Shown here in pieces: positions 168 through 30,700 of a DNA stretch of 36,474 nt. Location: assembly GCA_013115125.1 (NCBI GenBank), contig JABANN010000349.1, positions 1 to 36,474 of the forward strand, in the 5' to 3' direction. The stretch comes from Perkinsus olseni. Taxonomy: Eukaryota. The notes below the pieces were generated by a model that was not told the origin of the DNA, did no database searches, and was given only the letters and a program-made list of their open reading frames with translations. The position numbers and the translations under genes were made by a program. Positions within the stretch are counted from its first letter, which is position 1; each line of letters starts with the position of its first letter.

Positions 168-964
168 ATGCACGTGATGTTCCTCAAGGACTTGACAGCA
201 GAAGGTCTCACAAGGAAGCAGTCTCGAACCTTCCTCTTCACCTTGCTCTACATCGAAGAGGACGATGATGAGGCCGAGATCAGCGTCTCTGGCGTGGGCA
301 GGCTGAGCGAGATTATCGCCCATATTAACGAAGGGAAAAGTTTGCAGTATTTTTCAGTGTTCGAGAATAAGAACGGCTTTCATTTCGTATTGAAGTACGA
401 GACTCCAACGAGGTGGAAGCAGCTTGCCGATACCCTCCGCAACAAGTACGGAATCTCCACCTCGGTCAGCTGTGCCATACCCAGGCCAGGGTACAGGACC
501 TGCATGTACCCCGTGTTGTTCTCCTACTGCCTCGACTTGGACCCCAACCCCTACCTATCCCCCAATCATCCCCACCCCAGCAGCCTCCTCGGAGACGGAG
601 AGAGGCAGGGCTCGAGGGCCAGACGGACTCCAGCTTTGGACGGGGGTGGTCTGCCGGCACTCCCACCTTCACGAGGCACTGAGGAGGAGGAGACGGGGAT
701 CTTGGAGCATGTCGACAGTGATGGAGTATCCGCTGTGAGCGCGGAGGAAGAGGTTCAGTCCCATTTTTCGGGAGAGTCGGCGGAGTCTCATGCCCTGTCC
801 TGACCTTCCCGTGGGGACAGGGACGCGTTGCGTGAGAGGCTTCAGCGATGTTATTACTCCCCTTATATGATAGACCATAAGGAGCAGGTGAGGCGGATAG
901 AGCCGTGCACCCGATGTTTCGCTGATTGGCTTTTCACTGCCACCTTAGCTCAGACCCAGCATGA

Positions 965-968
<4 letters not shown>
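168..968 (+). pseudogene. CRESS-Rep-like paralog 1: HUH-like N-terminal domain, helicase domain deleted, in-frame TGA at 801-803 before a conserved C-terminal tail
   Basis: ORF 168-803 aligns by eye with 2031-3359 (QSRTFLFTL/QSRSYIYSW, KYETPTRWKQLADTLRNKYGI/KYGTPTRWKQLSDTLRSRYGI, CMYPVLFSYCLDLDPNPYLSPNHP/CMYPMLFSHCLDLDPSPFLSPHHP). After TGA 801-803 the same frame continues DALRERLQRCYYSPYMIDHKEQVRRIEPCTRCFADWLFTATLAQTQHE* (stop 966-968), matching the C-terminus of paralog 2. It could be a pseudogene or a functional truncated gene. Confidence 0.75.

Positions 969-1015
<47 letters not shown>
965..1015. repeat. (ATG/TGA)n trinucleotide microsatellite, 17 ATG units
   Basis: Perfect ATG x17 at 965-1015, starting at the terminal stop codon of paralog 1. 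Confidence 0.97.
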
Positions 1016-1415
1016 TTTTAGATACCCTCTCTTTGTTTGGTTCCCATCAATCGCTCCTTCCATCCTCCTCTCAGGCTAGACCCGTCGTCCACACTGTTGG
1101 TCGTGCAGGATAGGTAAGACCCTCCAGCTGCCCCCTCTCCCCGGTCGTCTCGACTGGCGGACATCTCCTGACTGTGAAGGCAGCGGCAACATGTGCATGG
1201 CAATACAGTGCCTCTAGCTGCTCGCTCTGTGGTGTTAGTCAGTTGGGGAATAAGCCACGGGCATCGTTGCTCGTCTTTCTGATATCTCCGCTCGCAATAG
1301 CAGTGTAAGCACTAGAGCTCTCTACGTAACTAACGGTGCGGACGTCACATCGTACAACATAGAATATGGCATCAGCTGAACCAATATCCAGTCAGCAGGG
1401 TTTTCCATAACAAAA

Positions 1416-2026
1416 ATGCAACCTATGTCACTCTCATCATCGTTCGCCGAAGCCCCGACTTTGAAGAAGCCAGTGTCTTGCACGGGCGGCGATGGTAAGG
1501 GGGCTCAGCTGTAGAGGACTTCTCGATGCCAGGCCGCGAGATACCCGCTTGTACTTTTGTCGTCGCCCGGTTGTTTCTCTGACTTGTTACTTTAGGCTCT
1601 TTTCTCCACAGTAACTGTTGCAATTTCTACCGGCCTGCAGTCAGGTCTACCGCTTTCCTTCATCGATGAAGATACTATCGTGTATGCCGATGAGCCCGAG
1701 ATAGACGATCCGAACCTCAAGATAATGGCCCTGAAGCAGCGTGAGTCCGCCTCTTTCCGGTGTTCGAGAAGAGTTGGGCTTGATTAGGTATCGATGTGTT
1801 GGAGGAGGAGAAGAAGTGGTTGGAGTGGCGTAGCTGTGTTGCGTCATTCTGCGATGAGGACATCATGCTTCAGGCCTTCGGAAATGGCAGGACTGCCACA
1901 AATGCTCAAAATGCAAACATGAGAAGCAGGAGGAGAAGGAGGACGAAGCCGTCGTTGTTAAGAGTAAGTTATCTGTTCTCTTCTTGAGTATCACAGAAGC
2001 TACTGATATGGCTGTATAGGAGGACC
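1416..2026 (+). CDS. Putative upstream exons of the Rep-like gene (short coiled coil plus basic NLS-like segment)
   Basis: Phase-consistent GT-AG introns at 1741-1787, 1964-2019 and 2027-2067 give ...DDPNLKIMALKQ-RIDVLEEEKKWLEW...NMRSRRRRRTKPSLLR-ED-RSARIMEV..., joining the 2031-3359 frame. The first exon (ATG 1416, donor GTAAG 1495) is less certain. Confidence 0.5.
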
Positions 2027-2030
2027 GTGA

Positions 2031-3359
2031 ATGTACATAGCGTCGAATAGCTTCGTCTGCGCCTCAGGCTCAGCAAGGATTATGGAAGTTTCGAGCCATG
2101 GCAGCCGAATGACCAGACACCAGTCGAGAAGCTACATCTACTCTTGGATCCATTGCAATGACATGGACCTACCAGATGGCGTGCTTAAAAAGCGGCTCAG
2201 TAGGGTGCTCGCCCAGCTAAACGAGGCCAAGTCTTTGACGTTCTATTCGATATTCATCGGCCAGCAGCAGAAGGACGGCAGTCGACTTGTACACTCCCTG
2301 CTGAAGTATGGAACCCCGACTCGGTGGAAGCAGCTCTCGGACACCCTTCGTAGCAGATATGGGATAGACGCGTCGATCAGATGTGCTGTCCCGAGGCCAG
2401 GCTTCAAGAGCTGCATGTACCCCATGCTCTTCAGCCACTGCCTTGACCTCGACCCTAGCCCCTTCCTGTCCCCTCATCATCCTGACCCAGAGAGCCTCCT
2501 CGACGTCGAGAGGCAGTGCTCGAAGGGCAGGCAGACTCTTGCTTTGGAGGGGGGCGATCTCTCGATGCTGCCGATCAAACGGGACGCTGAAAGGAAGGAT
2601 GGAATTCCGGAGCATGCTGGTGAGGACAGAGCACTGGCCGTGAGTGTGCTGGGAGACAGCCGAGCTTTTATGGATGAGTCTGTGGACTGTATGGAAGAGG
2701 ACAACACGGACCCGATGTATGAAGTGGAAGCTTGCCTGGAGGCCGAGTGCATCTGTGAGAGTCCCGCCCTGTGGCTTGAGAGAATATCGTCCTTGGTTGT
2801 GCGGAATCTTGGAGAAGGGGGAGCGAAGAAATTGAGGAACGATATCCAGCGGAACCTGGATGAGGGACGCTCGAAGGAGACTAATGTTGTTATCTACGGT
2901 GTGGCCTCCAGTGGTAAGACCGCCATACTGCGGCCTCTCACTCACATCTTGAAGTGCGCTAAGATCTCCGATGCTGAGGAAATCTCCCATGAGGATTTAC
3001 TCGACTGTGAGTGCATCTTGTGGAGTCACTTCTCCGTGGAAGATTTGCACGACAACTTTGATATGACGAAGTTGCTCAAACTCCTCGACGACCGCCCGGT
3101 TGAGATGAGCTGCTCGAGCGACCTGGGAAATACTGGCTCTACTTTCGACAAGTTGGTGCCAATTTTCCTGACGTGTGATGCGCTCCCTGTCCCAAGGGAA
3201 GATCACTACAGGGAGGCCTTACATGAGAGGCTTCAGCGATGTTATTACTTCCCTCGTAAGATGGACCACGAGGAGCGGGTAAAGCCGTTCAGGCCTTGCA
3301 ATCGGTGCTTCGCTGATTGGCTCTTCGCGGATAGATTGGCTCGAACTCAGCATGAATAA
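2031..3359 (+). CDS. CRESS-DNA-virus Rep-like protein (degenerate HUH endonuclease domain + SF3-helicase-like domain), paralog 2; probably terminal exon 2068-3359 of a spliced gene
   Basis: 442-aa ORF. Walker A NVVIYGVASSGKT (GVASSGKT at 2898-2921), Walker-B position CILWSHF, motif-C position PIFLTCD and Arg-finger region EALHERLQR appear in SF3 order and spacing. The N-terminal part has RCR motif I/II/III-like positions (SYIYSW; QQKDGSRLVHSLLKY; FSHCLDLDP). Confidence 0.75.
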   Translation: MYIASNSFVCASGSARIMEVSSHGSRMTRHQSRSYIYSWIHCNDMDLPDGVLKKRLSRVLAQLNEAKSLTFYSIFIGQQQKDGSRLVHSLLKYGTPTRWKQLSDTLRSRYGIDASIRCAVPRPGFKSCMYPMLFSHCLDLDPSPFLSPHHPDPESLLDVERQCSKGRQTLALEGGDLSMLPIKRDAERKDGIPEHAGEDRALAVSVLGDSRAFMDESVDCMEEDNTDPMYEVEACLEAECICESPALWLERISSLVVRNLGEGGAKKLRNDIQRNLDEGRSKETNVVIYGVASSGKTAILRPLTHILKCAKISDAEEISHEDLLDCECILWSHFSVEDLHDNFDMTKLLKLLDDRPVEMSCSSDLGNTGSTFDKLVPIFLTCDALPVPREDHYREALHERLQRCYYFPRKMDHEERVKPFRPCNRCFADWLFADRLARTQHE

Positions 3360-4224
3360 TGACGTTTCACCTGTCTGCTGTTCGGTTCAAATCAATTTCT
3401 GCGGCAATTATTCTCTCACGCTTGCAGGAGGTGGTGGTGACATTGCTGCTAATCAGCCGTAGGTACGGAAGCCTATCATGACTGTTTCGGTGGCAGAGCG
3501 TCGTCTTTGAAACATGTTGTGTCAAGTAAAATACCATTCGCAGGCGCTTCAATCTGCTGCTTCTGTAGCGTTGTCCAGTTTGGAAGTGAGGGGCTCAATA
3601 TGAGAGCGGATCGTGATGACTTGGGCTTCTTCTCCACCAGACGGTTCCCTTCCGATATTTTCCGGGAGCTTCAATGTACATCAGTCTGTAACGAAAAGAT
3701 TCAACATGGAGAAATGAGGCCACTATGCCATGAGGCGCGAGAATCGCCGGTATCTCAGCCGTTCGCCGGAGAGCTGCGCCAGCCGAGCGGCTCGAATTTC
3801 TGCTGTAGGTCCTTAGTCAGGAGCTACAGCAGGAGTCCTGACACGTAGAAGCGCCGTGTTCCGACTTTGGGCCGTAAAGTCTCCGCAGTAAGGGAACGAC
3901 CCACTTGCTGACCCCGAGATTCTCGAGTTGAGACCATTGGCGCCCCACCTGGCATAGTGGAGGCTGCATTCTTGCATGCTGCATTATCTTGTCGCAGGCT
4001 GCTGTATGTCGGGCACATCGCCCGAGCCTACCGAACTTGGTCAAGCATTTTTTAGCGGGAAACCGTGGCTAATTGTATTATGTAACGCACCACATGGTTG
4101 TCTAAACCATTCTAGTAGTGTGGTGTCTCGCTCACTTTATAGAAGTTTAGTGCACCGCGGTGTTTTCCTCAACACTGACCCTTGAGTCCTGACGGCTCAG
4201 TTTCCTCAGTACTACTGGGCACAG

Positions 4225-4283
4225 CTTCGGCTGGAGGGCCCACTGAGTCAGTACCACTGACTCAGTAGGCCCTCCAGCCGAAG
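4225..4283. repeat. 59-nt inverted repeat (28-bp arms, 1 mismatch, 3-nt loop); candidate rolling-circle origin-like or ITR-like hairpin
   Basis: CTTCGGCTGGAGGGCCCACTGAGTCAGT-ACC-ACTGACTCAGTAGGCCCTCCAGCCGAAG. The palindrome is seen directly; its function is inferred. Confidence 0.9.
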
Positions 4284-4554
4284 GGCGCCTCCTGCCGCCA
4301 GGTCCCGCGGTGAATCTTCCGAAGATTATCTTCGACTGACGGTGAGGGCATCAACAGTACATGCATAAGAAGACAATGTCCCAGGGAGAAACATGACTTT
4401 GAACTAGGAACTGATCGATGGTTCGGCGTTGAGCTTCGCAGTATCCCACAGGAGATCGGTGGTTTTCAAATATAGGCCGAGTGCCGCCAGCGCCGAGTGA
4501 AACCATCATGCACTGTTCGCGACACGTAAAGCTGCTTTTGAGGCTTCTTCACAT

Positions 4555-4845
4555 ATGTCGAACTCGCCATCCCAGCCCATCCAGCCCGTCGACTCACCAA
4601 ACGCGAGTGCCGGTGAGCTGGCTGCGATTATAGACAACATTTCTCTCGAGTCGATCGCCGTTTGTATTTTGTCTCTCCCATCTGTTGGAAGGTCGCGCGC
4701 TGAAATAGTATCTCGGAGACGTGGCTACCTGGCGCCTCCTTTGCGTGCTGTAATCCCTCGTCTGGGGGATAGTCAACCGTTTCACGAAGCCGTCATGAAA
4801 TTTCCTGAGACAGTGGATCCAGCAGTCTTGAATATACTCGTCTAG
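4555..4845 (+). CDS. Hypothetical protein (96 aa)
   Basis: ATG-initiated ORF with protein-like composition; no motif recognised. Confidence 0.25.
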   Translation: MSNSPSQPIQPVDSPNASAGELAAIIDNISLESIAVCILSLPSVGRSRAEIVSRRRGYLAPPLRAVIPRLGDSQPFHEAVMKFPETVDPAVLNILV

Positions 4846-6654
4846 CAGCCTTCTTGTCCGGATGAGGCACTGCCAAGGACTCACTCAGTATGAGTGTTCT
4901 AGTACTCAAAATTGAAATCATAGAAACTCACTGAACGCCTACTACGTCAACTCTAGAAGAATGGCGGACTGGGTTGCTTGGCGGAGTAGCATCGACTGTG
5001 ATGTATTCGGTCGCATTCGCCCTAGGCTGCACTACCTGGGGAGTATTTCCACCGTGGTTAAGCGTTAGGATGGTGGGCAGAAGGAACCGCTGTGACTATG
5101 CCTTAACGACATCCATAGCAGTTTCATTCGACGAGTTTCCGTCGGAAACTTTCCGAGAGTAACCACGAGGCGGTCGCCGAGCACTATTCCTATGAGTCTT
5201 GAATAACTTTATACGGTGCTAAACTCTTTCCGTAACTTAACCAGGACTGAACTCTCCGCCATGATTGCCGTTTCTCTGCTCCAGATATCTTTCACGACTG
5301 CGTGGAGTCTAACCCCCGGCGCTGTTCTGGTGAGCATAGCTATCACTCCTGAGCATGCTTTTCAACACCTGTCACTTCCTGCAGTGTCTAGTACCGTCGC
5401 TTCTCTAGTCGAATTCAGGCGATGAGGACGCTGTCCTTCAGATGAAGTTAGCTTATTGGACGCAACAGTTCTCTATGGGGATGAAGAAGGAGACTCGGAT
5501 ACCGAGGAGAAAGTGAGACCGAAGGCCATGTACGCGCACTCCAAGCAGCCTCGCCATAGTTAGTTGTGTCAGTCCCGCGGCGTGAGTTCGAGGCCATGGA
5601 GGAACGTAAGGCGTCCTTCAACTTCTGTATCAATCATGAGTACTCCTTCTACTCGCAGGCATTCGCTTCCTGGAGTCGGAAAAGGCTGAACTGAAGCAGG
5701 GCGGCAAGCAACTCCGTTTTCACGGCTGGTCGCCATTCTGTCACTGGATAGGTGCATCTAGCCGCGTTGGCTTCTGTCCGCAATGTTCGCATCGAAATCT
5801 GCCGGCAGAAGCGGGCGAGAGCCGCGGAGAAGGTGAGGACCCTCTCCGGCCCGGGTGCGGTGTTTACTACCTTACAGAAGCTGTTGCTATCACTAAGGCG
5901 GATATTTCGGTGACCAAATATACGTTGAAAAATGAATGCAGCGATATCATCTGTCTGCCATACATGAAAATAGCCATTGAAACCTCAAGACAAAAGCACT
6001 CGGACACTTGCGTGACGTAAGTCACGTCGAAATACATATCCTATGCATCCAAGACACGAGAGGGTGTCGTCCTACTCTTTCCAACTTCCACGATGTACTG
6101 CTCGTAACTGGGGAGTGTTCGACTCGTTTTGGTGAGGACACAGAGGGAAGTGTTTCGTAAACTTGTGGGCCGGGCTTCCCTCATGTGTATTCCGGCATGT
6201 GGCTGCCGCTCGGGTCACGATCATTCTCTTGAGTCTCGCAAACTCAAATTCTTCGGCTTCGATCTCACTGGAATCGTTCTTAATCTTGCGAAAGACATTA
6301 AGACTTTGCGGCGACTCGCCGGGGCAACCGAGAGGAGAACTCAACGCATATACTACAGGAACACTTTCCCAGTTGGCATCAAGAGACCTGAGTCGAACAG
6401 CCCCCCTGGTTATTAGGATTACACCGTCGAAGTTGAATGCACAGTAGTGAGGCATAGTCCTTCATTGATGCAACACTCAGGACCCATAAGGCCACTGGTC
6501 GAGGCAGGAATCCGCCCTCGCATAAACGTGAAATCAAGTAGCACTGTCGAGTGTCGGCGGACCGGCATGCGAATTTGGTTCGACTTGTACTTCTGTACTT
6601 CTAGTAGCTGCCACCTGAGAAGCGTGACACAGCACTTCAATCATACGCGATATC

Positions 6655-7200
6655 GTGGGCAGTACATGCCTCTCAGACCGCATCCCGGCCGAAGAGCTAG
6701 CCACGAGCGGCACCAGGATTACTCCCTGGCCCGTTCGTGACGCTTGTTCGGCAACTGAGCTTCGGTTGGCCGACCGAGAAGCTCAGGCCAGAGTCTACGT
6801 GTGGGACTGGCCGGAGTCCTCTCACGGCCTATCTCCTCGTCATATCGGGAAGTCGGAACTGGGACGTTTGGTAACGGAGCTGAACGTTGGAAAGGGACTC
6901 GCCCAGTTTTCGATCTTTTACCGACGCTTGCCAAGCGGAGCGGTCAATGCTCGCTTCATTGTTAAGTATTGGGGCTCACGACGTTGGGTGAAGATGTCAC
7001 AAACGCTGAGGACGGTGTATGGTATTCATGCTAGTACTCTGCAGGGCTCTCGTGGTTCCCTCAACTACGACTCGCTTTTCAACGATTGCCTCCTCGGTGA
7101 CCCGGAGCCCCTCCTCTCCCCCAACCACCCGCCCGTCCCGTTGCCTGATTATATACCCACCATTAGTAGAATGACTGGCATTCTTCAACCTTCGTCGTGA
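6655..7200 (+). CDS. CRESS-Rep-like paralog 3: N-terminal domain only; likely terminal exon from 6677
   Basis: QARVYVWDW...LGRLVTELNVGKGLAQFSIF...IVKYWGSRRWVKMSQTLRTVYGI...YDSLFNDCLLGDPEPLLSPNHP aligns colinearly with paralogs 1 and 2. The ORF has no ATG before the domain; a CCTCTCAG acceptor ends at 6676. Confidence 0.75.
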   Translation: MGSTCLSDRIPAEELATSGTRITPWPVRDACSATELRLADREAQARVYVWDWPESSHGLSPRHIGKSELGRLVTELNVGKGLAQFSIFYRRLPSGAVNARFIVKYWGSRRWVKMSQTLRTVYGIHASTLQGSRGSLNYDSLFNDCLLGDPEPLLSPNHPPVPLPDYIPTISRMTGILQPSS

Positions 7201-13250: not shown

Positions 13251-13323
13251 TTCCGATGCGGGGACTCGAACCCCGGTCGCATGGGTGAGAGCCATGAATC
13301 CTAACCAGCTAGACTACATCGGA
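13251..13323 (-). tRNA. tRNA-Glu(CTC): tRNA-Glu (anticodon CTC)
   Basis: Minus strand TCCGATGTAGTCTAGCTGGTTAGGATTCATGGCTCTCACCCATGCGACCGGGGTTCGAGTCCCCGCATCGGAA. Acceptor stem TCCGATG/CATCGGA, anticodon stem CATGG/CCATG with loop CT-CTC-AC, T-loop GTTCGAG; no intron and no encoded CCA. Confidence 0.97.
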
Positions 13324-17498: not shown

Positions 17499-18896
17499 CT
17501 AGAGGTCGCAGGCTGTAGGGTCCTCCGGCGTCGTCCAGCAGAGACCTCCAACCCACTGTGCGCCGTCCTTCAACCAGTTGAACCGGAAAGTAAGGTCGTT
17601 ACCACCAGGCGCATACTGTATTTGGAGGAAGAACCCTAGAATGGTGATTTGGAAGGCCAAGAAGGCTACACCGTAGATGACGCACAAGCGCCCGAGCGCT
17701 TTCACCGACCGCAGCCCCGTGACTTTCTTGATAACCCTCGTCAAGAACATGAAAACGCACACTTCGCCGACGACATCCAAGCAGTTGAAGAAGATACCCT
17801 GCCAAAAGGCCTTGTCTTCGACCAAAGCAAAGTTGTCATTGGGCCTCTTATTGAAGTAATAGATAGCGAACGAGCAAATGGTGTACTGCAAGGGAGCGAT
17901 CATCTCAGCGAACTCCATGAGCAAGGATACTGTGACCAGTTGCCGGGCCGTCTCAGAGCACTCAGTCTTGTACTGTAGACGACGCAGCTCGAGCACATGG
18001 TAGAGGTTCTCAGAGAGGTCATAGACGATGAAGACTGCAAAGACGTACCACGCCGACACTCTGTTCATGAGGATGGCTATGAAGGTCTCGTGGCAGAAGC
18101 AAGAGGAGAAGATGAAGAGAGGATAGCCGTCTTGAGCCCGCTTTGAGAGGAGACGAGTTCCAACCTTCTCGTAAATGCCGCGGACCACACAGAAGGCGAG
18201 GGCCATGAACGCTTGAGGGATGCCTTCAAGCTGGTTAAAGAGAGCACCGCCGAGCGGGTAGATGACGCCATAGACAACCGTGACGCCTACGAGTATCCCA
18301 ACCGATACGAAGAAGTCCGCACGGTGAGACCTTTCTTGCAGGACGGCAGGGTTCATGAAGAAGTACAAGTATACGAAGACGAGGGGGATTATGGCCGCGG
18401 CCTGGATGACAGCCAGCATGGGCACTGGGAAGACGTCGAAGATGAGGTAGGGGATAATGCCGCCGAGAGTGACAATGCCGGCGCTCAAGTAGGGCACCAT
18501 TAGGAACTGCCCCCATGGCGTTCGGAACAACGGTACGGTGAGAAGAGCTCCGGGGACGAAGGGGTACATGGTACTGCCGGCGAAGTCCATGACGAAGAGC
18601 GTGACGAAATGCCACACCATTGCAGTGGTAGAGGTCTCGTCAGCGTCGGGTAACCCAGGGATCCAGAAGGGTATGACGGCGAAGAGGGGAGCAAGGAGGA
18701 CGGCCAAGAGCCACTTCTCGGGGGACTTGGTACCGTCGTAAAAGCGAGAGTGGCTCTCGCGCATGACTGCTTCGATACGGTCAGCAATGGACGAAGAGCG
18801 CGGGCGCTGAATAGACCTGGCGTCATCGGCGAAGGTCGGGTTGGGGATCGGTTGGGACTCCTGCAAGGAGTAACGGGTGACTGAAGATGATGCCAT
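17499..18896 (-). CDS. Intronless multi-pass membrane protein (about 10-11 hydrophobic segments), unknown function
   Basis: 465-aa ATG-to-stop ORF with repeated hydrophobic stretches of about 20 aa (e.g. WLLAVLLAPLFAVIPFWIP, FFVSVGILVGVTVVYGVIYPLGGALF) and visibly G/C-rich third codon positions. Confidence 0.88.
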   Translation of the reverse strand: MASSSVTRYSLQESQPIPNPTFADDARSIQRPRSSSIADRIEAVMRESHSRFYDGTKSPEKWLLAVLLAPLFAVIPFWIPGLPDADETSTTAMVWHFVTLFVMDFAGSTMYPFVPGALLTVPLFRTPWGQFLMVPYLSAGIVTLGGIIPYLIFDVFPVPMLAVIQAAAIIPLVFVYLYFFMNPAVLQERSHRADFFVSVGILVGVTVVYGVIYPLGGALFNQLEGIPQAFMALAFCVVRGIYEKVGTRLLSKRAQDGYPLFIFSSCFCHETFIAILMNRVSAWYVFAVFIVYDLSENLYHVLELRRLQYKTECSETARQLVTVSLLMEFAEMIAPLQYTICSFAIYYFNKRPNDNFALVEDKAFWQGIFFNCLDVVGEVCVFMFLTRVIKKVTGLRSVKALGRLCVIYGVAFLAFQITILGFFLQIQYAPGGNDLTFRFNWLKDGAQWVGGLCWTTPEDPTACDL

Positions 18897-19066
18897 TGCG
18901 GTCGCTCACTTGGTCGGGCGTTGCAAGCGTTGATGCGGCTGAAGAACGGCTAGGATCGGAGGCCTTCCGGGGCACGGCCAATAAGCCTGATCGGATAAGT
19001 CAAAGTGTTCTGCTGCTGGTCATCACAGTGATGAGAAGATACTGACTTCCGGATCCACCCGAAAGT

Positions 19067-20085
19067 TTGCTCGACGAGCGTTGTATACAGATCTCGATGG
19101 GCTCGGGTACACCTGAGAAGCCAGGACCCTACCTGAGAGCGAAGGCGCCGTGTTGGTCACCTGACGGAAGAGGCACCAAATCTAGCGACTCAGCGGAGGA
19201 GAGAGACCCAGTGATCTCCGATAAGCGTCGGGAGGTGATAGGGGGGCCTGGCATGGCGATAGTGCTAGAAAGAGCGGCTCGTCTTCACTCACCCGAGGGG
19301 CTGGCTACGGGGCTGAAGGATGCAGGGGTGGCGATGTCGCCTTCATCTGAGGTAGGAATTGCCGCGAGGGGAAGAGCCGTGACCCCCTACTTATGCTATG
19401 GTGCACTGCTTGGTCCTCGGGCCCGTCGTCGGGCGCGGTGAAGGGTTGGATTTCGGACGCCATGCAAGGCTGGCAAGAATGAAGCCTTGACGGATTGACA
19501 GTGGGGGGGCGAGCTAGAGAGTACCCCAACATGAGGTGCTCCGAAGAATCCGAGCGCAGCGTGGGGACCGTGCCCGAGTATCTTGCGCTCTTGACTAATC
19601 TTGTATTTCCTCAGCGCTCTCCTGCGCAACTTCGGCAGCGACCGCACCAAAATGGTCACTCCCCAGTACTGCCCCATCAGCACTTTGAAGCCAATTATTC
19701 ACGGGGTTTTACCGCTCGTTGGGCCATCGGACTTCCGATGGCCAAGTGTATGTCAGGCACCATTTTTGCTGTCATTTTTGCGTATTTTACCTCGGCGGTT
19801 TTGACTCGAGCTCCCTTATGAGCTCCCATCTCTGTCGGCGGGACGCGGCCGGTCGTGATGAGAACTGTCAGAAGCAGTTTAGCGGTGTGGAACGAGTTTG
19901 GCTTAGAAAAACTGAGAAGCTTTGACGATCTCTGCCTTTGCAGTGCCCTCATCTTCCAGCTGCTCGACAGGGGCTGGGCCCTCAACCTCTATCTCGCGGT
20001 TCTGGCTGGAGAAGTACTGCTACTGAGAATTGACGGTCTGTCTGCGACCGTGAGGGAATCGCCAGGTGTAGTTGTGCTCAAATGA
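19067..20085 (+). CDS. Possible hypothetical multi-exon protein
   Basis: Chain of + strand frames (19067-19441, 19601-19804, 19855-20085) with plausible composition; no motif recognised. Confidence 0.25.
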
Positions 20086-20704
20086 AACTGGGTTGGATGT
20101 GGGCCTGTTGTGGGTTGGGAGATTGCCAAGAGTGATTGAGACCAGGCGCAAGGGAGGCAGTTTCCTTCTCGGGAGGCTGGCTGACGCGGCTGGTCTATCG
20201 AGGGCAACGATCGCTGGGGCGTGAGAAGTACTGCGTCACGGGAGTTTAATAACGGCGTGCTAAACAACTTGCTGGCTGGGCGGCGATCGCTCGGCACGTC
20301 CCGGTGACGAATCTTTGCTCCAAGCAAGACTTCGGAGTTGATGAACGACCGATGGAAGACCATCAACGTTGGGGAGACCCGCGGACAGTTGAAGGACGTG
20401 AAGTATTGAAGGGGGCCCTTCGACGACACTACGAGAATGTCATGGAGGCGCCCGAGGCAGAAATCTCTGGCCGTCGTGTGATAATCAGTGAGCGGAATGC
20501 CGGCCCACATTACCCTGCCGGTTCACTGGTCTCGGCTGAGCTGCTTGAACCACTTGGTCCCTCGAAGAGGGTTTTCTCCTCTTTCTTGTTGCCCCGCTCA
20601 CTGACTTTTTGTTTGGGTTTCTGTCGGCACTCAGTTGTATTGGGTCACGGATATCCGGCTGAGCTGTGTCATTGTTACGTCCTCCTCAGCCAATACTTGT
20701 CTAT

Positions 20705-23700
20705 ATGTTAATACCGCCTCGTCTGGTCTGCCTGTCATTGTTGTTGGGGCTGATGGGCGGCCGTCATGCCCTACGACGGCGGCAGAAGGAGCCAGTTTTG
20801 GAGTGAGTTCTTTGCCAGCGGGATCGACAAAGCGCTGGAAATCCCCCTGAAATATTTCTTTCGACAGGTTGCTGAACCCGTCGGAGGATCCTGGAGGGAC
20901 TTCGCTTCTCGAGCTCACTTCGGGGCATAGAATTCTCCCTGCCCTGGCGATTCCTCTGATCTCTGCGGCTCTCCCGGCAGTTGCGGGCGGTGGTTTGGGC
21001 CTTTTCGGCCTCGGTAAGTTCACACACAAGAAGATCATGGACTCCAAAATGAAGGCCTTTGCGTAAGCTCGGGTGCATCACTGTAGTACAATGGGAACGG
21101 CTTCTCTCGTGCCAGGAAAAAAGACTGCGAGGCGATATTCAACGGAACGATACCTAACTTGGACGATAAGAAGCACGAGCGCACGAGGGTCAACTGCGGT
21201 TTGTATATATTTAGCGAGCTGGTAAAGCTCACTAAGGACGCTACGACGGAGGGGAGGTTTGTCAACGAATCGTCAAAGAAGTGATGATACCACTCCATCA
21301 GCAACTCGTGTATGACTGTAGCAGTTACACTATGGGATGGGAGGCCTTGAGACCGCTGGAGGCGGTGGTGGAAGCTTTGGATCCAATCGTGGACGCGGAG
21401 AAAAAGTGAGATTCTCTAACCCATTCCGAAGAAGGGCCACGCTAAAGCGGCGCGGCATCCATTCACCATCTCTTTCACTAGCTGTGGACGCTGTTCGGCC
21501 AGCAGCAATCCATCTGTTTTCGGAAGTAGCAGGAAAGGCGGTGGATGGTTTTGCTGACAGGCACAATGGTTTGCGTAAACGGCGACGAGATTTAGGGCAA
21601 GCGCTCAAGACACTTCGAGAAAAGCTGGTAAGTTCCTGGCCTTTGCGACCCTGAGAGATTTCGAGTCCTCTGTCAGGAGTCCCGATTCGGATCCTCGTTT
21701 GACAGGCTGTCTCGGCTGGAGCGGTAAGACGGAGGGCTTTTCGCTGCTGCTCTTCACAGTTGCCTTCCTCAGGAATATTCACGATGCGCTTCTGGAGGAC
21801 AAACGAGCGGAGTCTAAGTTGGCGAGGGAGGTAGCATTCTTTTCATCTCGGGCATCAGTACGAACCGGCCGCGGTCAGACCGCGAGGGAGTTCAAGAGCA
21901 ACGTGGAGAGAGGCGCTGGGAAGATGCTCGCGAATACGTACACTGAGGACGCTGAGACTGAGGCGGTGAGCGATGCGGTGTCGCCTTCCCGAGTCGGTAT
22001 CTCGGCGGTTAGGCATTGAAGAAGACGACGAGGGGCGTGGGGATCCAGCAGAGGAATCTGCTGAGAATGGCCGACAAAGGAAACCGTGGCATGGCAAAGG
22101 ATGAGAAGAAGGTGGTGTCTCCAGCTGGAAGGCCGGAGGGCATCTTCTACTGTAGTTTCAAGACATGGACGCTGAGCTTCATCGGCGGCTGGTGAGTGAT
22201 GAGGCAGAGGCAGCGGATATTCTCGATGGCAATGGGCGTCGCAGTACGCAGTTGAGACAGTAAGGACTGGTTTGATGGACTCGAGGCTGGATTGCTGTTG
22301 TTATTAGAAAAATGACGGCGGACGCTGACCATCGTTTCGGACGGGTGGAGAAGGTGCTGGGGCAGGAACTACCGAGGAGTCAGCACCGAGTAGGGAGGAG
22401 GCCTAAGTCGGTGTTGTCGTTGAGTTACGTGATCAGATATACAGAGAGACGGCCGAGGCAGCCAAGCAGTTGGAGCGGGGGCTCGGTGTCTCGTCCAAGG
22501 GGCTGGCTATGTCCAGAGGAATGTTCGACAAGAAGTTGGACAGCGACTTCGGCCGGATGGACAGAAGGCTAGTCTCAGCTGGGAAGGAGTATCAGCTGGT
22601 GAGTGGAGGGGAATCCCTCGGCTCTCGCGTCCTGTGTGGTTTCGCGAATTATCGATTCGGTGATGAGTGACAGCACGGTGGTTGGCGTTGCCTTGTAGGC
22701 CTTGGATGATGCTCATAATGACTTGGGTCGTCAACTGTCCGCAGCCAAAGCTTCTTCCTCGATGGAGGCACTGCGGAGAGAGAGGAAGTCACAGGAGAGA
22801 AGCGTGCAAAAGTTGATGTAATGGTTCCCTCCGACCGGGCTGGCGTCATTGCTCTTCGTCCGCAGAAATAATTATGAGCACGACGCGGAGTCCAGCCAAA
22901 GAGATGTGGAAGCGATCAACGCGGTCATTGAAGCGGATGCCACAGCGCAAGAAAGGAGTATGAGGACAGTCCAGAGTGACCTACAGCGCCAGGTGACTAA
23001 CGAGGGAGAGTTCTCAGCGGGGGTGCTGTGGACTGGTGCGTCGTTCTGTCAGCTCTTCACGAATGTGAACCACTTGGAGTCGATTCTAGCCAACAGTGCT
23101 TCGGAGCAGGGGACGGATGCTCACCGATCGGTAAGGGCGTCGGAGGAGCCCCTGGCCTGTCTGTAGTACTTGTCCCTGTTTCAGGCTCAGCTGCTGCGGA
23201 ACGTCGTGGCTGATCATCAGATCGCTGTGGACCAGGAGAATGTGCGTGCAAGTGGGGAGCTAGGAGAGGGCCAGGCACTCGTCACGAGAACTGCCGATGA
23301 CATCGGAGGACATGTGACGGATGAGACTGCTCGGATGAAGTACGTAGTGGGAAAGGGGGTATCAGGTATCACTAACGAGCTTGTCGATCGGGCTCAACTC
23401 GGTGGCTAACCCGTCGTGCATTCGGTGCCGCGGGAAGGGTGTTGATATTCATCTTCTCTTGACCGCTCCCTCCCCCTGCCTCAGACTAAAGATAGACCGT
23501 ATATTGTGGTCGGGGAAGTCTCAGCTGAGCGATGGGAAGTCTTTCATCTCCTCTGCTGGCAGGAAGGAGTTACTCACGCAGAAGCAGATCGCCGGTGGGC
23601 CCTCATGTTTCCAGAGTCGAACCCGGCAGAGTAATTGCAGATCAATTCACGGCTGAGGAGCGCAACCTGCTCTTCATGGCGGATGCAGACCTAGAGCACC

Positions 23701-26700
23701 TTTCGAAGGAGGACAAGGCCAAGTTCCTCGCCTTAGCCGATCGACTGGAGTCCGAGTCCACTCGAATCAGCAAAGGCAAGCGACAGCATACAGCAGGCGT
23801 ACTATACACGAGATTCTGTGCAGATTTCGGTTCCCTTGGTACTGCCCTGTCGGGTTTGGATGCGGGTGCGGCCACGGCTAAGGCAGAACTCGCTGCCCTT
23901 GCCTCCGAGGAGGGGAGGTTGACGGCTAAGATGGCAGCTTTCTCTACTAGGGGTCAGAACGTGATTGCTGCTGATAAAATGTAATTACCCTGGCCTTGTG
24001 TTCGTCCCGAATGAGTGACGGCTTAGATACGGTGCCCAGCTGCTGGGTGGGCTCAAGTCGCAGACTGCACGATACGCGAGCGAGTCTGCCGGGGCCCTCG
24101 GCGCTCGCGCTCTGCAGGAGAAGAATAATGCATCAAAGAGTGTCACCGTAAGTCCTACGAGCCTTGATTTGGCTGGCTGTTATCGGTTGTGTCCTGTAGG
24201 GCTACATGTCGCTGATGGAGCGTCGGTTTGGGGCTACTCGCGGAGCGCTATTGAGGGAAGAGGCTGAAGCGAGGTCCCAATACGGCATCGAGAAGAATGA
24301 CGTTGATAAGGTAGCAAGCGCTGTGCTTGTCGCTGCCAAACGCAGGCGGCGTGAAATTCTGATGGCGAGGGTCTTCTGTGGCTTGTATGGCCCATCGCGA
24401 TAGGAGCGCTGTATTAGGGTGTGCTGGGCTGAGGCTTCGCATTTTGGCGAGAATTGGCCTCTCTCTCGGGACTTCAACAGACAGTTACCAACAGCGGATT
24501 TAAACAGACTTCGTATCTCGGCGGGCGGCTCCGTTCGACTTAAGATACCATTCCGATATGTCTCTATGACGAACCGGGAGGAGCTGCTCCTTTGCGCCTG
24601 AAATTGCTCCGTATTTTCTGTTGAGGAATGTGTTGCTCTCGGCAGGCCGAGGAGCTCGTGGCTACGCTGAAGGACGAGTCCCAACAAGACGAGATCAAGC
24701 TGAGGGATTCACTGCTGCGGCTGATAAGGAGCGACGACCAAGGCGCCGAAAACGTAACTCGTATCTTGCACGCGTCAGCCTTGCTTCAGTGATTGCTCAT
24801 CGCCGAGGTCTGTGAACTTGAATACCACTCCTTTCAGTTCATTCGAGAGATGTTGGAGGCGCAGGACGGACGACTGGTGGACGTACGCAATGTGTTGTTG
24901 AAAATGATCGGTACGGATTCCTCGGGGGTTATGAATGCCACCGAGGCTGATGTGTCCACGGTGAAGGACAAGGTTGGTGCCCGAGTGCTCTTTGCCTGTG
25001 GTGCAGCTGATCGCTCAGATGGAGCTCTTGCTGGCTAGCGAGGAAACTGAGGCGCAGAAAGATGCTCGACGGGATTCGCAGCTGATAGAAAACACCGACA
25101 AGTAGTGCGGCATCCTCGATAGCGTAGGGCACTTGGGCGTTCAGGTTGAAGGCGGTGGGAGCGGCCCATCGACGAGCCTTAGCCACGTTAAGAGATCTGG
25201 TAAAGTCCTTGACACATACGGTTGCGGTAGAGATGCATGCGAGGGAGCAGCACGTGAAGTGAGGCACAGCGGGCTTGTCCTTGTGGGAGATCTTGCGATT
25301 TTCTTCAGTCGCGAGGAGCTGACTAACGGCGTGGAGATCAGAAAGCTGAATGGGAGGTTGACGGCGGAGATACAGAAGTTGGACGATTTCTTCGCGAGAA
25401 CTCGCCGAGGGGTTTACGATGATTACCGGAGGGCGTCACAGATGCTGATGGTACGATGGCGGTCGATACAGGGTGGCGTCACTCGTCGGGGGTAGGTACT
25501 TATCAACGCCTTGAGGAAGGTCATGCGGCTCGACGTTGAGAGAGCAGTTGAGAGGCACATAGCAGCACACAAGGCTTTGGTGAGGACATACGCGTAGTGG
25601 GTGGCTGCCGCCAAGTCCCTGTTCTCTTCAGAGAGAGCAGTACGCTAGTATGAAGGCCTTGGCTAATGATTCGACTGCGACTCTAGCGGAGAAGCAGGTG
25701 GAAGCGTCAATGGTACTGCAGGAGGTGATCGCTTCATCATCGTCATCCGTTCTCTCTTTCAGCATAATGTGGATCGGACCTCGGGAGCGTCGAGTATGAT
25801 GACTCGCCTGGTGAACATGGCTAGGTGAGGCTGCTATGCTGTGGGTAGGGGAGGTGGACTATTATGGGTTCCACTATAGGGGCGTCGGCACGAGCGGCGA
25901 GAAGCTGGGCGTCGAAGCGCAGGGGGACCTGAGCGGGCTCGTGGACACTGAGGCTAGGGAGTATGAAGAAGTGGAAGATGCTCTGGTTGACGATACTAAT
26001 GGCTTCAAGTATGTGCAGTGGTCTCGGGCCCCCTTGCATGTCGAAGTTATTGTGCGTTTCAGGAGCGAGTTGAAGCTGGACAAAGCTCACTCAGATGAGG
26101 ATCTTTTGGTGAGAAATCAGCAGCTGGAGTTTAGCTGGCCACTCCCGCTGTGGTCAGGCACATAAGACAGAGGTCGCCAGAGGTGACTCGGCTATCACTG
26201 GTCGGCTGGGTGAGGGCAGCCTAGCCCTTGGAGACCAGGCATCTCGCACGGGCAACGTCCTAGGGTAAGAACGATGGTCATGCTTTTGCACTGAGTTAAC
26301 AACCCTGCTCTTCTCACGCTCCGCATGCCTAGAAACCATTCGACTGGATCGCTCAATGGTAAAGAATCTCTACTGGAGATGTCAGGCAATCATTCACTGG
26401 CTCAGGTACAATGCCCAGGCAGCAAGACGATATCAAGAGGCAGTGGAGAGCGAGGAGCACATCACCGGTGACGAGCTGAAGGCGTTGGCCCACAGAGTCA
26501 GGTAGGCCCTCTGGAGAGTCCCCGCCTGTTTTGTGACCTTCGTTGCCCAGCGCCAACGATGAGGGGCTGTTGAAGTCGATCGCCAAGTCGAGAGGAGTTG
26601 CGCTGGATCGGGCAGCGAACGTGGAGACTGCTGTGGTCGCGTTTATGGCTACCATGAACCAGTACATGGAAGAGGTGCTTCCTGAGTGAATGCTCGTGGT

Positions 26701-27326
26701 TCCGTGAGAGTGCTTCCTTAGGTGAAGCAAATGTTCAATACAATGCGGACGAGCATGGCCTCCTTGGACCCAGTAGGGGAACCTATAGCGAGTAGGCCGG
26801 TCTTCGCTTTTGGTGGAGGATGAGTTGTGTCTTTTAGACAACGCGACTGATACGTCGCAGGAGGTGATGGAGCGAGCTGGTGAAGTGTCGAGGGAAGTTA
26901 AAAAGTAAGATGCAGGGATCGAACCTGCGCCTTTTGGTAGCACAACTCTCCTTCAGCGATCTCCAAACCTCGAAGGTGATGCATAGTGCTATGCGGCACG
27001 ACCTGTCGGAGGGGCTGAAGCAAGTGCAGCATGACGCGACAATGCACCAGTACGGTCATCGTACGCCATCCCTTCAGAAGCTTTCGGTGGATCAGGTCTA
27101 CTGAGAAGGAGCTTCATCGGCAAATGCTGGCCTCGTCCAGAAAGGTAGAGGACACTCGTAGGAGTGGTAGAGAGTCTTTCGACCAGTAGGATTTCTTGTT
27201 TGCCTCGAAAAGTACCTCTCCCTCTGTAGGTGGCTTCATGCCAGAGAGCATCACTACGACTCGATCTTCGTCGGCCTTGCTAGTGAACTCAACAGCAATG
27301 GGGATGAAGATGATGCGTTTGATTAG
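20705..27326 (+). CDS. Giant multi-intron secreted alpha-helical/coiled-coil protein, paralog A
   Basis: ATG 20705 gives signal-peptide-like MLIPPRLVCLSLLLGLMGGRHA. Introns 20803-20867 and 21063-21115 keep the frame. Many short Ala/Glu/Ser/Leu-rich exon frames follow. The last intron is 27186-27229, then QWLHAREHHYDSIFVGLASELNSNGDEDDAFD* (TAG 27324-27326). Internal exons were not fully traced. Confidence 0.7.
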
Positions 27327-27751
27327 CAATGCATTTCACGAAAGTGAATGTGGACATGCGCCTCGATGGGCGTACACTAAGTTGTGCTTTATTCCGTGGG
27401 TGTTCGACTTGGTCGAGGGGAGGTTGGGTGGAGCCTGGGTACCGTCTGGGGCGGAGTTCGTTGGCCTATCATCCGCAGAAGAGCGTTACCATACGACAGA
27501 AAGACCAAAGCCTCCAGCAGGTTCCTAGCCGATATTCTCTGCGACCGATCCACCAGCGGGAAGACCATTCTTCCACTCACGTCCGTCGGTGTGAGAAGTC
27601 TTCACTGTAGAATCTAGTACTGTATATACAATGGTGTCCTTCACTTTACTGGAGTAAACACCGCAAGCGACGAAGGCGGGGTATATCTACTAGCTGTGCA
27701 GTTTGCACTCGCCAATCGTGCGCCCCCTCTCTCAGCCATTATAAACTTTTT

Positions 27752-30700
27752 ATGTTGATAGCCCCCCTATGGGGGCTACTAGCATCACTCGTCCTCGAAG
27801 CTTCGGCGCTAGCCACGGCCGATCCACCTCCTGCTGCTCCATCATTCAATGCAACTGAAACTAGGTAACCATGGTCTTCGTATCGCGCTCGAGCAAGGTC
27901 TTCTCACTCTTCAGAGGAGCTCTCTCGGAGTTAATACCGTTGGACGAGATCCCTGACCGAATCCCTGAGAACCTTCGCTTCCTCATGTGAGATCAAGGAC
28001 CCCGTTTTTCCTTGCGGAAGAGTCCTGATCCTGCCGTCCTCAGGCCACGAAATTGCACAGAAGGGGAGGCTTCCTGCCTGCCTCATAGAAAGGCGAAGGT
28101 CAACAGAATGTACAACCAGATGCTTTACCTCCTTAAGAAGTCTCAAGAGGCTTTCACGAGGTTGGTCGCGGCCCAGGAGGCACTACCGTTCGCAAGCTGG
28201 CCCTGATCCATTCAGGCTGGGCTCAATCAAGGGAACCGTCAGGCAGGAGAACCTCACGCTGGGAGGGGATGGCGGGTGGGTAGCTGCTAGAAGTGACGAG
28301 GACTGTTCAGGCCGTGTCATTCAGGAAGAAGCTCACAGCGACTCTGGAGAAGGGGGTCAATCTGCTTCAAAAATCAACTGTAGGGCTTTGCAGATTCGTG
28401 GTCCCTCTTTATTCGCTCGGTTCGCTTCAGAGAAACAGCCTTACGAAATCAGCAAGAATTATGACTGAGATTGAGAAGTAGCGTTGTCTGGGGGCTCCTC
28501 AGTGGACTGTCGCCGACTTGCGATCGGTTGTTGGAAACGAGACCCTGATTGAGTTTTTGCGAGCTCAGGAACATGGGTAGCGAGGTGAAAAGGCTGAGGG
28601 AGTGGTTCTCGGAGATCTCCCAGCGGGTGAGTTTCACATGCTTTGGCCTTGTCGTCTACCCATCGTTGTTAGGCAAGGGACGGTAACAAGGAGACGCTGC
28701 AGCAGAGCATGGAGCACATGCTTGAGGCCAGCGAGAAGATGAGGGTGAATGTTGGCAGGGCAGGGAACTCTGGGTCGTCGAGAGGTGCTGAGTGAAGCTC
28801 GGTGATTCAGGCCATTGCCGAGTCGACGGGCGAGATCACTCGGGTGCAACGACGCTTTCCTTTACGCGCTGCTAGAGTTCTCAAGCTCTCTCGCGAGGTG
28901 GCCAGCCGGGTGAGCAGGGATGACCTTCCCTGGAAGACGTTCCGCGACAGCTGAGCTCATAGTGAGGTCGAGCTTGTGTAGGCGTCGAAGGGAACGCAGG
29001 CCGCGCTGCATCGCACGGGAGTGTTGGGAGGAGCTCTAAGCCATATGGAAGAGGAAGGCATGAAGCGGCAGAGACAGGAGCTACTGTAAGGAGTCTGTCG
29101 TGCTTCGAAGGGCTCAAGCGCTGTTAAGGTACTTGCTCGATCGCACGACCAAGCAATATGGTAGGGCCGCAGCATCGCTCGCGAGCTTTAGGCAGCGGAG
29201 GTCGGGGGAGGTATGCTCCAAGAGAGCTTTTACGAGGAGCGGAAGGTGTGGTATGGACTCAGGAACTGAAGCGAATCCGGCAGAAAGCTGCGAGCTTTGT
29301 GAAGAGAGGGCGGATGCTTGATGAGGAGCTCCTTGTGAAGGGGAAAGAATTGAACATTAAGCGGCGTCTCAGGAGATCGACCAGAATCAGCGATACTCTC
29401 CTGCGAGGAGGGCTTCGGGTGAGTCTACCCCGACGCCACTGAAGGGATTGCCTAGCAATGTTCGGTGGCATACGGAATCATGATGATACCAAACGCGATT
29501 CGAGCAGTGCGGTGAATTGGTGAAAGTTTGGTAATGTATTATTCGCCAGCGCAGGCGATCGGAGCGATTTCCCTATGACAAGCCTTCTAAGCTGTGCTAG
29601 ATCCTTTTCTATACTACAGCGTAGTTGATGTGAAGAGTGGGAGACTCTTCATCGCCGCCTCGGCAATTATGAGGGGACCGCTGTCAGTCGCTCTGGCAGC
29701 CATTTCACCATCTCGCTGCCTGCCTTTGTGCTCATCTCTTTCTTCGTCAGGGCCTCGCCCGAGACGTCAGTGGTCTGAGCTCGGATCTCGACCATGTGGC
29801 GACCGAAGGGAAGAAGGGGGTATCGAGACTTGCGTCGAAGGAGAAGGAAATGATTGTCGGGAGAACCGCTACTGCGTGAGCCTCGACGGCTGCTGCAGTT
29901 GAGCTGGTCATGCGGATGGCAACAACCTCAGGACTGCCGTGGACAGCGCTATCAAGAGCCAGTTGAGCGGCTTCGAGAGCGCGGAGGCTGAGCTGAACCG
30001 TGCTGTGCGAGCGGCGGACAAGACGCTGATGGACGACATGGGCAAGGAGCTCGACGGCGTGAGGCTGCTAGTCGTGGCTCTTTCGATGAGCGTGTGGATC
30101 TGTGTAGGTGATCAAGGAGACGAGTAAGTTCGAAACTACTACAGGAGGCGTCCAGCGGCGTGCGGATGCTGAGACTAAGCACATCGTGAGCTAATGCACC
30201 GTGAGGAGGCTGCTTGGACTGGTTTCCTCAGAGGAAAGATGCGCAGCAAGCGATGCATCTCGCGGAGGAGCAAGAGCAGGAGAACCTTCTGCATGGCAAG
30301 CAGGTGGGTTCTGTTGTTGAGGCTTCTGCCTACGCGCCATGGTCTGCCTTCGAGCTCGGCTGCTCCCCTCAATCAGATGGCGGAGGCCACGGGCTCCTTG
30401 CAGGAAAGCGGCGAAAGGGACCTTCGGGGAGAGATAGGACGGAGGGTTGATGCGGCCGAGTACGCAGAAAGGGTGCTTCCTTTCGATGCTCTACTGTTCT
30501 TCTACAAAGGCACAGCATCGCTGCCATGGGTGGTCGTGTGGACGCCGCGATGAGTGTAGTGAAGCGCGGGCTAGCTGAGACTGCTGCTGGAGCTGCGAAG
30601 TCGGAAATCCAGAGTAGGAAGAGTACTTCGGGTAGTCTATCGTCTATGAGTTGCTTCGCAGACTCGCTAGGAGTGCTGGAGTCTGAGCTGAGCCAGGATA

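Follow-up and report, generated by a model that had tools for sequence, protein, structure and literature searches.

The gene at positions 1416 to 3359 (forward strand) of contig JABANN010000349.1 from Perkinsus olseni (GCA_013115125.1), which was analyzed here within a window comprising the whole 36,474-nucleotide stretch, descends from a viral-type replication initiator protein (Rep) that combines HUH-endonuclease and superfamily 3 (SF3) helicase domains. The gene is transcribed and is spliced at four short GT-AG introns. Together with the loss of catalytic residues and the presence of related genes in Perkinsus marinus, these results make it likely that it is an expressed nuclear gene of P. 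olseni, and that its product is an anciently endogenized, domesticated and non-enzymatic member of the Rep family with an old N-terminal head. The databases already contain a model of the gene, labeled as a hypothetical protein, and Rep genes that have been domesticated are a known kind of gene. Within the literature available without subscription, neither a description of Rep-like genes in Perkinsus nor a report pairing Perkinsus with an HUH endonuclease was found, and three publications on 'endogenous viral elements' in Perkinsus deal, judging by their titles, with RNA-virus RNA-dependent RNA polymerases and with Symbiodiniaceae rather than with Rep.

Transcript structure of the gene

Parts of the stretch were recovered from four public sequencing runs (X1 to X4), and the contigs were mapped onto positions 1000 to 3600. 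A single 762-nt contig (X4 record 7) spans positions 1397 to 2496 and links the upstream exons to the Rep-like open reading frame (ORF) in five blocks (1397-1493, 1644-1740, 1788-1829, 1874-1963 and 2068-2496), while the four stretches that it leaves out, of 150, 47, 44 and 104 nt, all have GT..AG ends. The first two joints are also present in a 241-nt contig from a separate study (X1 record 1), which ends at 1830. Further downstream, X4 record 8 covers positions 2638 to 3473 and an X1 contig spans 2460 to 2879; runs X2 and X3 contributed one short contig each, wholly inside the ORF and thus uninformative for splicing.

According to these contigs the 5' untranslated region (UTR; 1397-1415) contains no ATG between 1397 and 1416, and exon 1 (1416-1494) begins with the start codon at 1416, followed by a second in-frame ATG at 1425 at which the deposited model FOL46_005684 starts. 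Intron 1 (1495-1644, 150 nt, phase 1; joint 1493/1644 in X4 and X1) separates exon 1 from exon 2 (1645-1740), which encodes the acidic box IDEDTIVYADEPEIDD together with the initial half of a coiled coil. Intron 2 (1741-1787, 47 nt, phase 1) interrupts an Arg codon ahead of 'IDVLEEEK', and exon 3 (1788-1829) provides the second half of the coiled coil, IDVLEEEKKWLEW. After intron 3 (1830-1873, 44 nt; joint 1829/1874 in X4), exon 4 (1874-1963) encodes LRKWQDCHKCSKCKHEKQEEKEDEAVVVK with a CxxCxxCxH knuckle (C80, C83, C86, H88), and intron 4 (1964-2067), a single intron of 104 nt with the joint 1963/2068 in X4, precedes exon 5 (2068-3359), which contains the Rep N-domain, a linker, the SF3 helicase domain and the stop codon (3357-3359). 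The 3' UTR (3360-3473) reaches at least to 3473. The introns, all GT..AG and 44 to 150 nt long, fit in size with those described for P. marinus, which range from 39 to 1622 bp and are mostly shorter than 100 bp (PMC3101222). At the 5' end, the genome match of both X4 record 7 and X1 record 1 stops at 1397, beside the AG at 1397-1398, leaving 7 and 4 unmatched letters, respectively. This AG may be an acceptor for a spliced leader or for an upstream UTR exon, and 5' processing of the transcript is probable; that Perkinsus carries out trans-splicing is stated in the same source (PMC3101222).

The transcript-supported exons translate to 532 residues without a single difference from the deposited FOZ61_006149 (P0001), a 532-aa hypothetical protein model to which the 442-codon ORF at 2031-3359 had shown 99% identity, and the same translation equals FOL46_005684 (P0179, 529 aa) save for three N-terminal residues. 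The initial annotation, which was made from the sequence alone, had likewise joined a Rep-like ORF to upstream exons adding a coiled coil, and this part is borne out by the X4 contig and by a modeled helix at residues 49-80. Since the contig spans both parts, rather than the exons at 1416-1987 forming a transcript of their own, a fusion of the upstream exons with the Rep ORF is favored. The proposed exon path is a single open frame (1650 nt without a stop), and each GT and AG dinucleotide on which it relied is in place, but the transcripts agree with it only in part. Intron 1741-1787 is seen in both X4 and X1 contigs, and the donor at 1964 and the acceptor at 2067 are real; they are, however, the ends of one 104-nt intron and not the outer ends of two introns flanking a 7-nt micro-exon at 2020-2026. 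Neither this micro-exon nor an alternative donor at 2033 occurs in any of the transcript contigs, the segment 1830-1873, which had been taken as coding, is spliced out in X4 as a 44-nt GT..AG intron, and the intron at 1495-1644 had not been listed at all.

These differences also remove the nuclear localization signal (NLS) 'RSRRRRR' that had been proposed as a sign of domestication. Because intron 1830-1873 had been overlooked and its removal shifts the frame, the stretch RSRRRRRTKPSLLR lies in an untranslated frame, and the supposed 'SCVASF...RSRRRRRTKPSLLR' is replaced by the translated LRKWQDCHKCSKCKHEKQEEKEDEAVVVK. A sequence scan of the actual protein detected neither a run of four basic residues in five nor a bipartite motif, the only pattern resembling a classical NLS being one KKLR within the helicase domain, and over residues 1-104 acidic residues prevail (22 D+E versus 16 K+R). 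Moreover, when the 104-nt intron was shuffled 2000 times, 64% of the shuffles offered at least one frame-rescuing micro-exon path (a micro-exon with a length of 1 mod 3 between two sub-introns of no less than 30 nt each), with a mean of 1.45 paths, and the actual intron offers four. Since such paths are so common in shuffled sequence, GT-AG dinucleotides combined with an open frame provide no evidence for a micro-exon. This also calls for some caution in general, as a GT-AG micro-exon that repairs the frame is expected by chance in about two thirds of introns of this size, and in the present case it masked an overlooked intron. Rare variants are dropped from assembled contigs, and a minor isoform with the micro-exon may exist.

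Rep homology and the loss of catalytic residues

The encoded protein consists, in order, of the acidic box, an amphipathic helix or coiled coil of about 30 residues, the CxxCxxCxH knuckle, a Rep nuclease fold, a disordered linker and an SF3 helicase fold. As a single sequence, the ORF matched Pfam only below threshold (PPV_E1_C, E 0.012), and it matched neither PHROGs nor, in a phmmer search, the PDB. A profile of 7 Perkinsus sequences, when searched against 1.84 billion representatives, recovered 357 proteins at E<=1e-3 (123 at E<=1e-10), many of them metagenome proteins of 430 to 640 residues aligned over both domains, and 14 of the 30 relatives that were scanned gave weak Pfam matches to at least one of Gemini_AL1, REP_ORF2-G2P, Parvo_NS1, PPV_E1_C and RNA_helicase. 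A 150-sequence alignment (A4) was then used both as a profile against the PDB and as input for AlphaFold2. The profile matched Rep40/Rep68 of adeno-associated virus (AAV; E 2e-8), parvovirus NS1 (E 3e-8), papillomavirus E1 (E 3e-6), the Rep of porcine circovirus 2 (PCV2; E 6e-4) and the geminivirus Rep endonucleases 7vg8, from tomato yellow leaf curl virus (TYLCV; E 0.005), and 1l2m (E 0.02).

For residues 104-532 AlphaFold2 returned a confident two-domain model (mean predicted local distance difference test, pLDDT, 83.5), in which model residues 152-209 form the disordered linker; an earlier model, for which 7 sequences had served as input, was of poor quality, with a mean pLDDT of 40.8, and was used solely for helix 49-80. 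Structure alignment of the confident model placed the Rep N-domain, with the HUH-endonuclease fold, at residues 118-241 and the SF3 helicase domain at residues 307-528, both within exon 5. Foldseek matched AAV Rep68 over the whole protein (1.6e-9) and, in BFVD, the Reps of CRESS-DNA viruses and parvoviruses (6e-12 and weaker). VIA-align superimposed the helicase domain on AAV2 Rep40 (Z 16.8, 196 aa, root mean square deviation, rmsd, 3.4) and, over about 195-200 residues, on NS1 of parvovirus B19 (B19V; Z 16.2) and papillomavirus E1 (Z 16.1), and it superimposed the N-domain (model residues 15-138) on the TYLCV Rep-DNA complex 7vg8_A (Z 10.3, rmsd 2.9 Å, 103 of 108 residues aligned). A Walker A P-loop, GxxxxGKT, is present (K386). 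On the basis of these concordant profile, Foldseek and VIA-align matches, the Rep-like label of the initial annotation is right, and the protein is, as judged by sequence profiles and predicted structure, a true Rep homologue.

The Reps of CRESS-DNA viruses (TYLCV 7vg8, PCV2 7lar, Vientovirus 9pqq) share with this protein the order of domains, with the HUH-endonuclease fold at the N-terminus and the SF3 helicase behind it, motifs I, II and III at alignable positions, and, through its relatives, the weak matches to Gemini_AL1 and REP_ORF2-G2P. Unlike them, the P. olseni protein has L-V-H in place of HUH, a His for the catalytic Tyr and a His for the Walker-B Asp, and its gene is chromosomal, arranged in tandem, interrupted by four introns and extended by a head with a coiled coil and a zinc knuckle. 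Parvovirus Rep/NS1 (AAV2 Rep40/Rep68, B19V NS1) and papillomavirus E1 provided the best profile and fold matches of the helicase domain, but at 12-18% identity and with the Walker-B acid missing here, and the N-domain resembles the geminivirus type more closely than the parvovirus type. Rep-derived proteins that are multi-copy in eukaryotic genomes also occur in Helitrons, whose RepHel combines two catalytic Tyr with a Pif1-like superfamily 1 helicase, and in Replitrons, which are devoid of a helicase; in contrast to these elements, the gene studied here encodes an SF3 helicase domain and no catalytic Tyr. Membership in the Helitrons was rejected, as the helicase domain matched SF3 members (Rep40, E1, LTag, D5) and PIF1 at the P-loop only (E 0.75-0.78). 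Endogenous Rep-like genes are known from other protists, including Giardia and Entamoeba. Like the endogenous circovirus-, nanovirus- and geminivirus-like Reps that occur in protists, fungi, plants and animals (PMC3198968), the P. olseni gene is chromosomal, expressed and apparently constrained, but it differs from them in belonging to a tandem multi-gene family across Perkinsus species and in its spliceosomal introns, its lineage-specific N-terminal module and the concerted loss of nuclease and ATPase residues.

Among the more distant metagenomic relatives, some carry additional host-like domains: a WW domain in P0014 (29.9 bits) and a Zn_ribbon_1 domain in P0049 (26.8 bits) were both above the cut-off, and by eye P0016 has a J-domain-like stretch with 'HPDK' and P0019 a SAM-like tail. 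Reps of this family may commonly be fused to domains of cellular type. No relatives were detected in IMG/VR in scans with P0021, P0015 and alignment A3.

Residue conservation was counted in the non-Perkinsus rows of the 150-row alignment. The first His of the HUH motif, which is H in 97 of 100 rows, is replaced by Leu176 (Leu176-Val177-His178 at 2286-2294, forward strand), the motif-III catalytic Tyr (Y in 103 of 106) by His226 (2436-2438, forward strand) and the Walker-B acid (D/E in 133 of 135) by His423 (3027-3029, forward strand). Three further positions are kept, namely the second HUH His (H in 92 of 99; His178), the Walker-A Lys (K in 135 of 136; Lys386) and a conserved Arg (R in 129 of 130; Arg490). 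Given the usual roles of these motifs in HUH nucleases and P-loop ATPases, the protein should neither nick DNA nor hydrolyze ATP. The same three positions are occupied by L, H and Q in the P. marinus protein P0004 (408 aa) and, by eye, in its cluster-mate P0183, the P. marinus orthologue of the gene. The P. marinus paralogue P0005/P0184/P0185 retains His, Tyr and Asp at these positions, and degeneration of other kinds is seen in the remaining P. olseni copies (P0002, P0003 and two further members of the family in the window, copies 1 and 3).

The N-terminal head and the gene family

The head is composed of the acidic IDEDTIVYADEPEIDD box, the helix at residues 49-80, whose hydrophobic residues are spaced alternately by 3 and 4 positions (by eye), and the knuckle 'CHKCSKCKH'. 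When its first 104 residues were searched with phmmer against 187 proteins, every match lay ahead of a Rep N-domain: P0009/P0153-155, with two modules each (E 3e-22 to 1e-21), the P. marinus proteins P0186 (E 9e-22) and P0183 (E 4e-14), and P0012 (E 3e-10), P0011 (E 9e-8) and P0007 (E 2e-5). A head shared with P0002 had also been considered, but the BLASTP match was not significant (E 64), and the family-wide spread was established from the other members. In an alignment of 8 module-bearing members the first and second knuckle Cys are invariant and the final ligand is Cys or His, and this conservation of the ligands independently supports the frame read from the transcripts. In addition, an intron of copy 3 (5606-5658, 53 nt, phase 1) splits an Arg codon before 'IRFLESEK' and thus corresponds in place and phase to intron 1741-1787. 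Because the head is common to divergent paralogues and to the P. marinus orthologue PMAR002897, it is, as far as sequence comparison goes, an old feature of the family that predates the split of the species. The recent capture by host exons, and with it the chimeric host-virus gene put forward in the initial annotation, is not upheld, whereas the proposed domestication finds support in the introns, the expression, the loss of catalytic residues and the P. marinus orthologue, though not in an NLS.

Outside the family, the module was not found among longer proteins in a set of 5.8 billion, where the two matches were the protein itself and its orthologue; hence no host gene that donated the head was identified, which is weak evidence. 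In Pfam scans of full-length proteins the head matched only coiled-coil families below threshold, and in the ESM Atlas it gave no usable feature match, only single-helix look-alikes at a template modeling score (TM) <0.5.

Three members of the family lie within 7.2 kb of the window and are 74-77% identical at the DNA level where they can be aligned. The upstream member, copy 1 (168-968, forward strand), consists of a Rep N-domain ORF (168-803) and a C-terminal tail remnant (819-965), the helicase being deleted and a stop codon (801-803) preceding the remnant; its N-terminal module would lie beyond the 5' end of the window. Copy 1 is 87% identical to P0007, and its tail, HKEQVRRIEPCTRCFADWLFTATLAQTQHE, resembles that of the catalytically intact P. 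marinus protein P0185, from which we infer that the gene corresponding to the intact one has, in P. olseni, been deprived of its helicase. The stop codon that ends the tail remnant is also the beginning of a perfect (ATG)17 microsatellite (965-1015), which would read in frame as a poly-Asp run. The downstream member, copy 3 (about 5441-7200, forward strand; deposited model P0010 = FOZ61_006148), contains an acidic box, a coiled-coil exon and 'CPQC', followed by an ORF with the N-domain only (6655-7200). Between the 3' end of the gene and copy 3, positions 4225-4283 form a near-perfect palindrome (28-nt arms, 96% complementary, 3-nt loop) with a folding energy of -40 kcal/mol as single-stranded DNA (z -9.4 versus shuffles), possibly a hairpin element or an origin-like remnant. 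Elsewhere in the window, a tRNA gene is located at 13251-13323 on the reverse strand (Rfam RF00005, 61.9 bits), eleven ORFs of at least 150 aa have no Pfam match at E<=0.01, and positions 18000-33000 show a sustained positive GC skew of 0.08 to 0.27 per 1-kb window, except for 27001-28000 (-0.006).

Family members are arranged in tandem in P. olseni and apparently also in P. marinus. P0183 (PMAR002897, 520 aa) is colinear with the gene from the coiled coil, the most conserved part, to the C-terminus (blastp with P0179: 49% identity, residues 47-526, E 7e-148). The accessions PMAR002896, 2897 and 2898 are consecutive and belong to one 625-kb contig, and in the fused model P0186 a 2897-like part immediately precedes a 2896-like part, which together suggest that the gene order in P. 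marinus is the same as in the window. In a FastTree phylogeny of 103 rows, obtained from the 150-row alignment by removing rows shorter than 380 aa, as well as three Perkinsus models that were partial or comprised the N-domain alone, and by adding P0183 and P0185, all 7 Perkinsus rows formed one clade with an SH-like support of 100. The simplest reading of this clade is a single origin followed by duplication, bearing in mind that FastTree readily joins long branches.

At another locus or haplotype of P. olseni (model FOZ60_016506) and in P. marinus, the gene appears to be separated from the copy-3-like member by an extra member with the N-domain only (P0012-like). In the window, tblastn detected no such member (compared region 3474-5283; P0009, P0186), which suggests that the cluster is structurally variable. 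In another assembly, the model P0006 (FOZ60_005535) joins the first exons and the Rep start of the gene to exons of copy 3 and skips most of the Rep core; it represents either a mis-annotation or a deletion haplotype.

Alternative explanations and biological meaning

In summary, the likely history would begin with a single endogenization of a Rep gene before the Perkinsus species split, after which the gene would have gained the head and the introns and would later have been duplicated. The lineage would then have been retained under selection at the protein level as a non-enzymatic protein that keeps the Rep fold, that probably binds DNA and/or nucleotide and that probably oligomerizes through the helicase ring and the coiled coil, the head being a putative family-specific device for oligomerization and zinc binding. 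As to mechanism, we tentatively prefer a regulator or dominant-negative partner of competent Reps, either viral or encoded by an intact paralogue; otherwise the protein would be a DNA-binding factor with a role in the host.

Several points weigh against this interpretation. The regulatory or dominant-negative role is pure inference on our part. Runs X4 and X1 are not recorded as RNA, so that their RNA origin is deduced from the intron-less joints, which a processed DNA copy in another strain would produce identically, and introns 3 and 4 were seen in one contig (X4) only. The assignment of catalytic residues depends on a MAFFT alignment at about 20% identity, and some HUH enzymes tolerate variant motifs such as HUQ. 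The synteny with P. marinus was drawn from accessions, a shared contig size and a fused model rather than from coordinates. Finally, the distant relatives are metagenomic, none of them was found in IMG/VR, and host-like domains are present in some; a mobile element instead of a virus could have been the donor.

A bolder and rather unlikely explanation is that the Rep cluster constitutes a working host system in which the dead members poison or steer the ring of a competent Rep. The common head with its coiled coil and zinc knuckle would allow the members to co-assemble. If the competent Rep came from an infecting single-stranded DNA virus, this would amount to heritable antiviral interference, and if it were the intact P. 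marinus paralogue, to a regulated DNA-nicking or rolling-circle activity of the host.

It is improbable that the gene, instead of being domesticated, is part of a mobile element that remains active or of an integrated episomal virus, with Rep units multiplying in Perkinsus genomes. Such an element would account for the multi-copy tandem family, with three members in 7.2 kb and many P. olseni paralogues, for the structural variation between loci or haplotypes, for the strong palindrome with 28-nt arms located 0.9 kb downstream, and for the P. marinus copy that has all catalytic residues. However, the copy studied here is without the first His of HUH, the Tyr for nicking and the acid of Walker B, as is its orthologue in what seems to be the same neighborhood of the other species, and it carries four spliceosomal introns. 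With only 74-77% DNA identity within the window, the copies are not recent insertions. No Pfam family, capsid or other, was matched at E<=0.01 in 12 window ORFs (11 of the 15 ORFs of at least 150 aa, and copy 3), a search that divergent CRESS-type capsids would escape, and no relative was detected in IMG/VR. Likewise, no stem-loop origin with a nonanucleotide was seen, the only strong hairpin (4225-4283) having a 3-nt loop.

A transcribed but functionless relic, that is, a decaying Rep pseudogene whose frame is open by chance, is similarly improbable. The lost catalytic residues, the clear decay of the neighboring copy 1 (helicase deleted, stop at 801-803) and the fast evolution of the protein between the species, with 49% identity, are what a relic would show. 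On the other hand, a frame of 532 codons runs through four introns without a break and has the same sequence in two assemblies, intact models of 527-532 aa from several isolates are available, four of these full-length orthologue or allele models falling into one 90% cluster, and the P. marinus orthologue has 520 aa. The coiled coil, the zinc-knuckle ligands, the P-loop, the Arg and a C-terminal CxxC are conserved. The ratio of nonsynonymous to synonymous substitution rates (dN/dS) relative to copy 1, at about 0.2 (0.21 in the N-domain, from 128 codons, and 0.24 in the tail, from 49), points to constraint, but it is a rough value from old paralogues with a saturated dS (1.75) and one truncated partner; for this reason present-day selection is not proven, and past constraint is only roughly estimated, which also weighs on the favored history. 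By comparison, the recent capture of a viral Rep ORF by host exons, which would have added a coiled coil and an Arg-rich NLS via micro-exon 2020-2026 with 1830-1873 kept, is very improbable, because, even if its path is open and GT-AG at every site, the upstream exons are truly joined to the ORF and rare isoforms could escape contig data, the sole contig across the region omits 1830-1873 and 1964-2067 in full, the transcript frame is identical to two deposited models, its CxxCxxCx[CH] motif has been conserved both in P. marinus and in the paralogues, 64% of the shuffled introns contain comparable micro-exon paths, and the head is older than the species split.

Returning to the preferred interpretation of a domesticated, non-enzymatic Rep-fold protein, species of the genus Perkinsus rank as major parasites of clams and oysters, and their viruses and virus-derived genes are little known. 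For this gene family, the descent from Rep, the true structure of the mRNA and the lost chemistry are all legible from the sequence, and the intact paralogue in P. marinus forms a natural contrast to the dead paralogues in both species. This contrast makes the ideas of a non-enzymatic binder and of a dominant-negative antiviral protein directly testable in a culturable protist.

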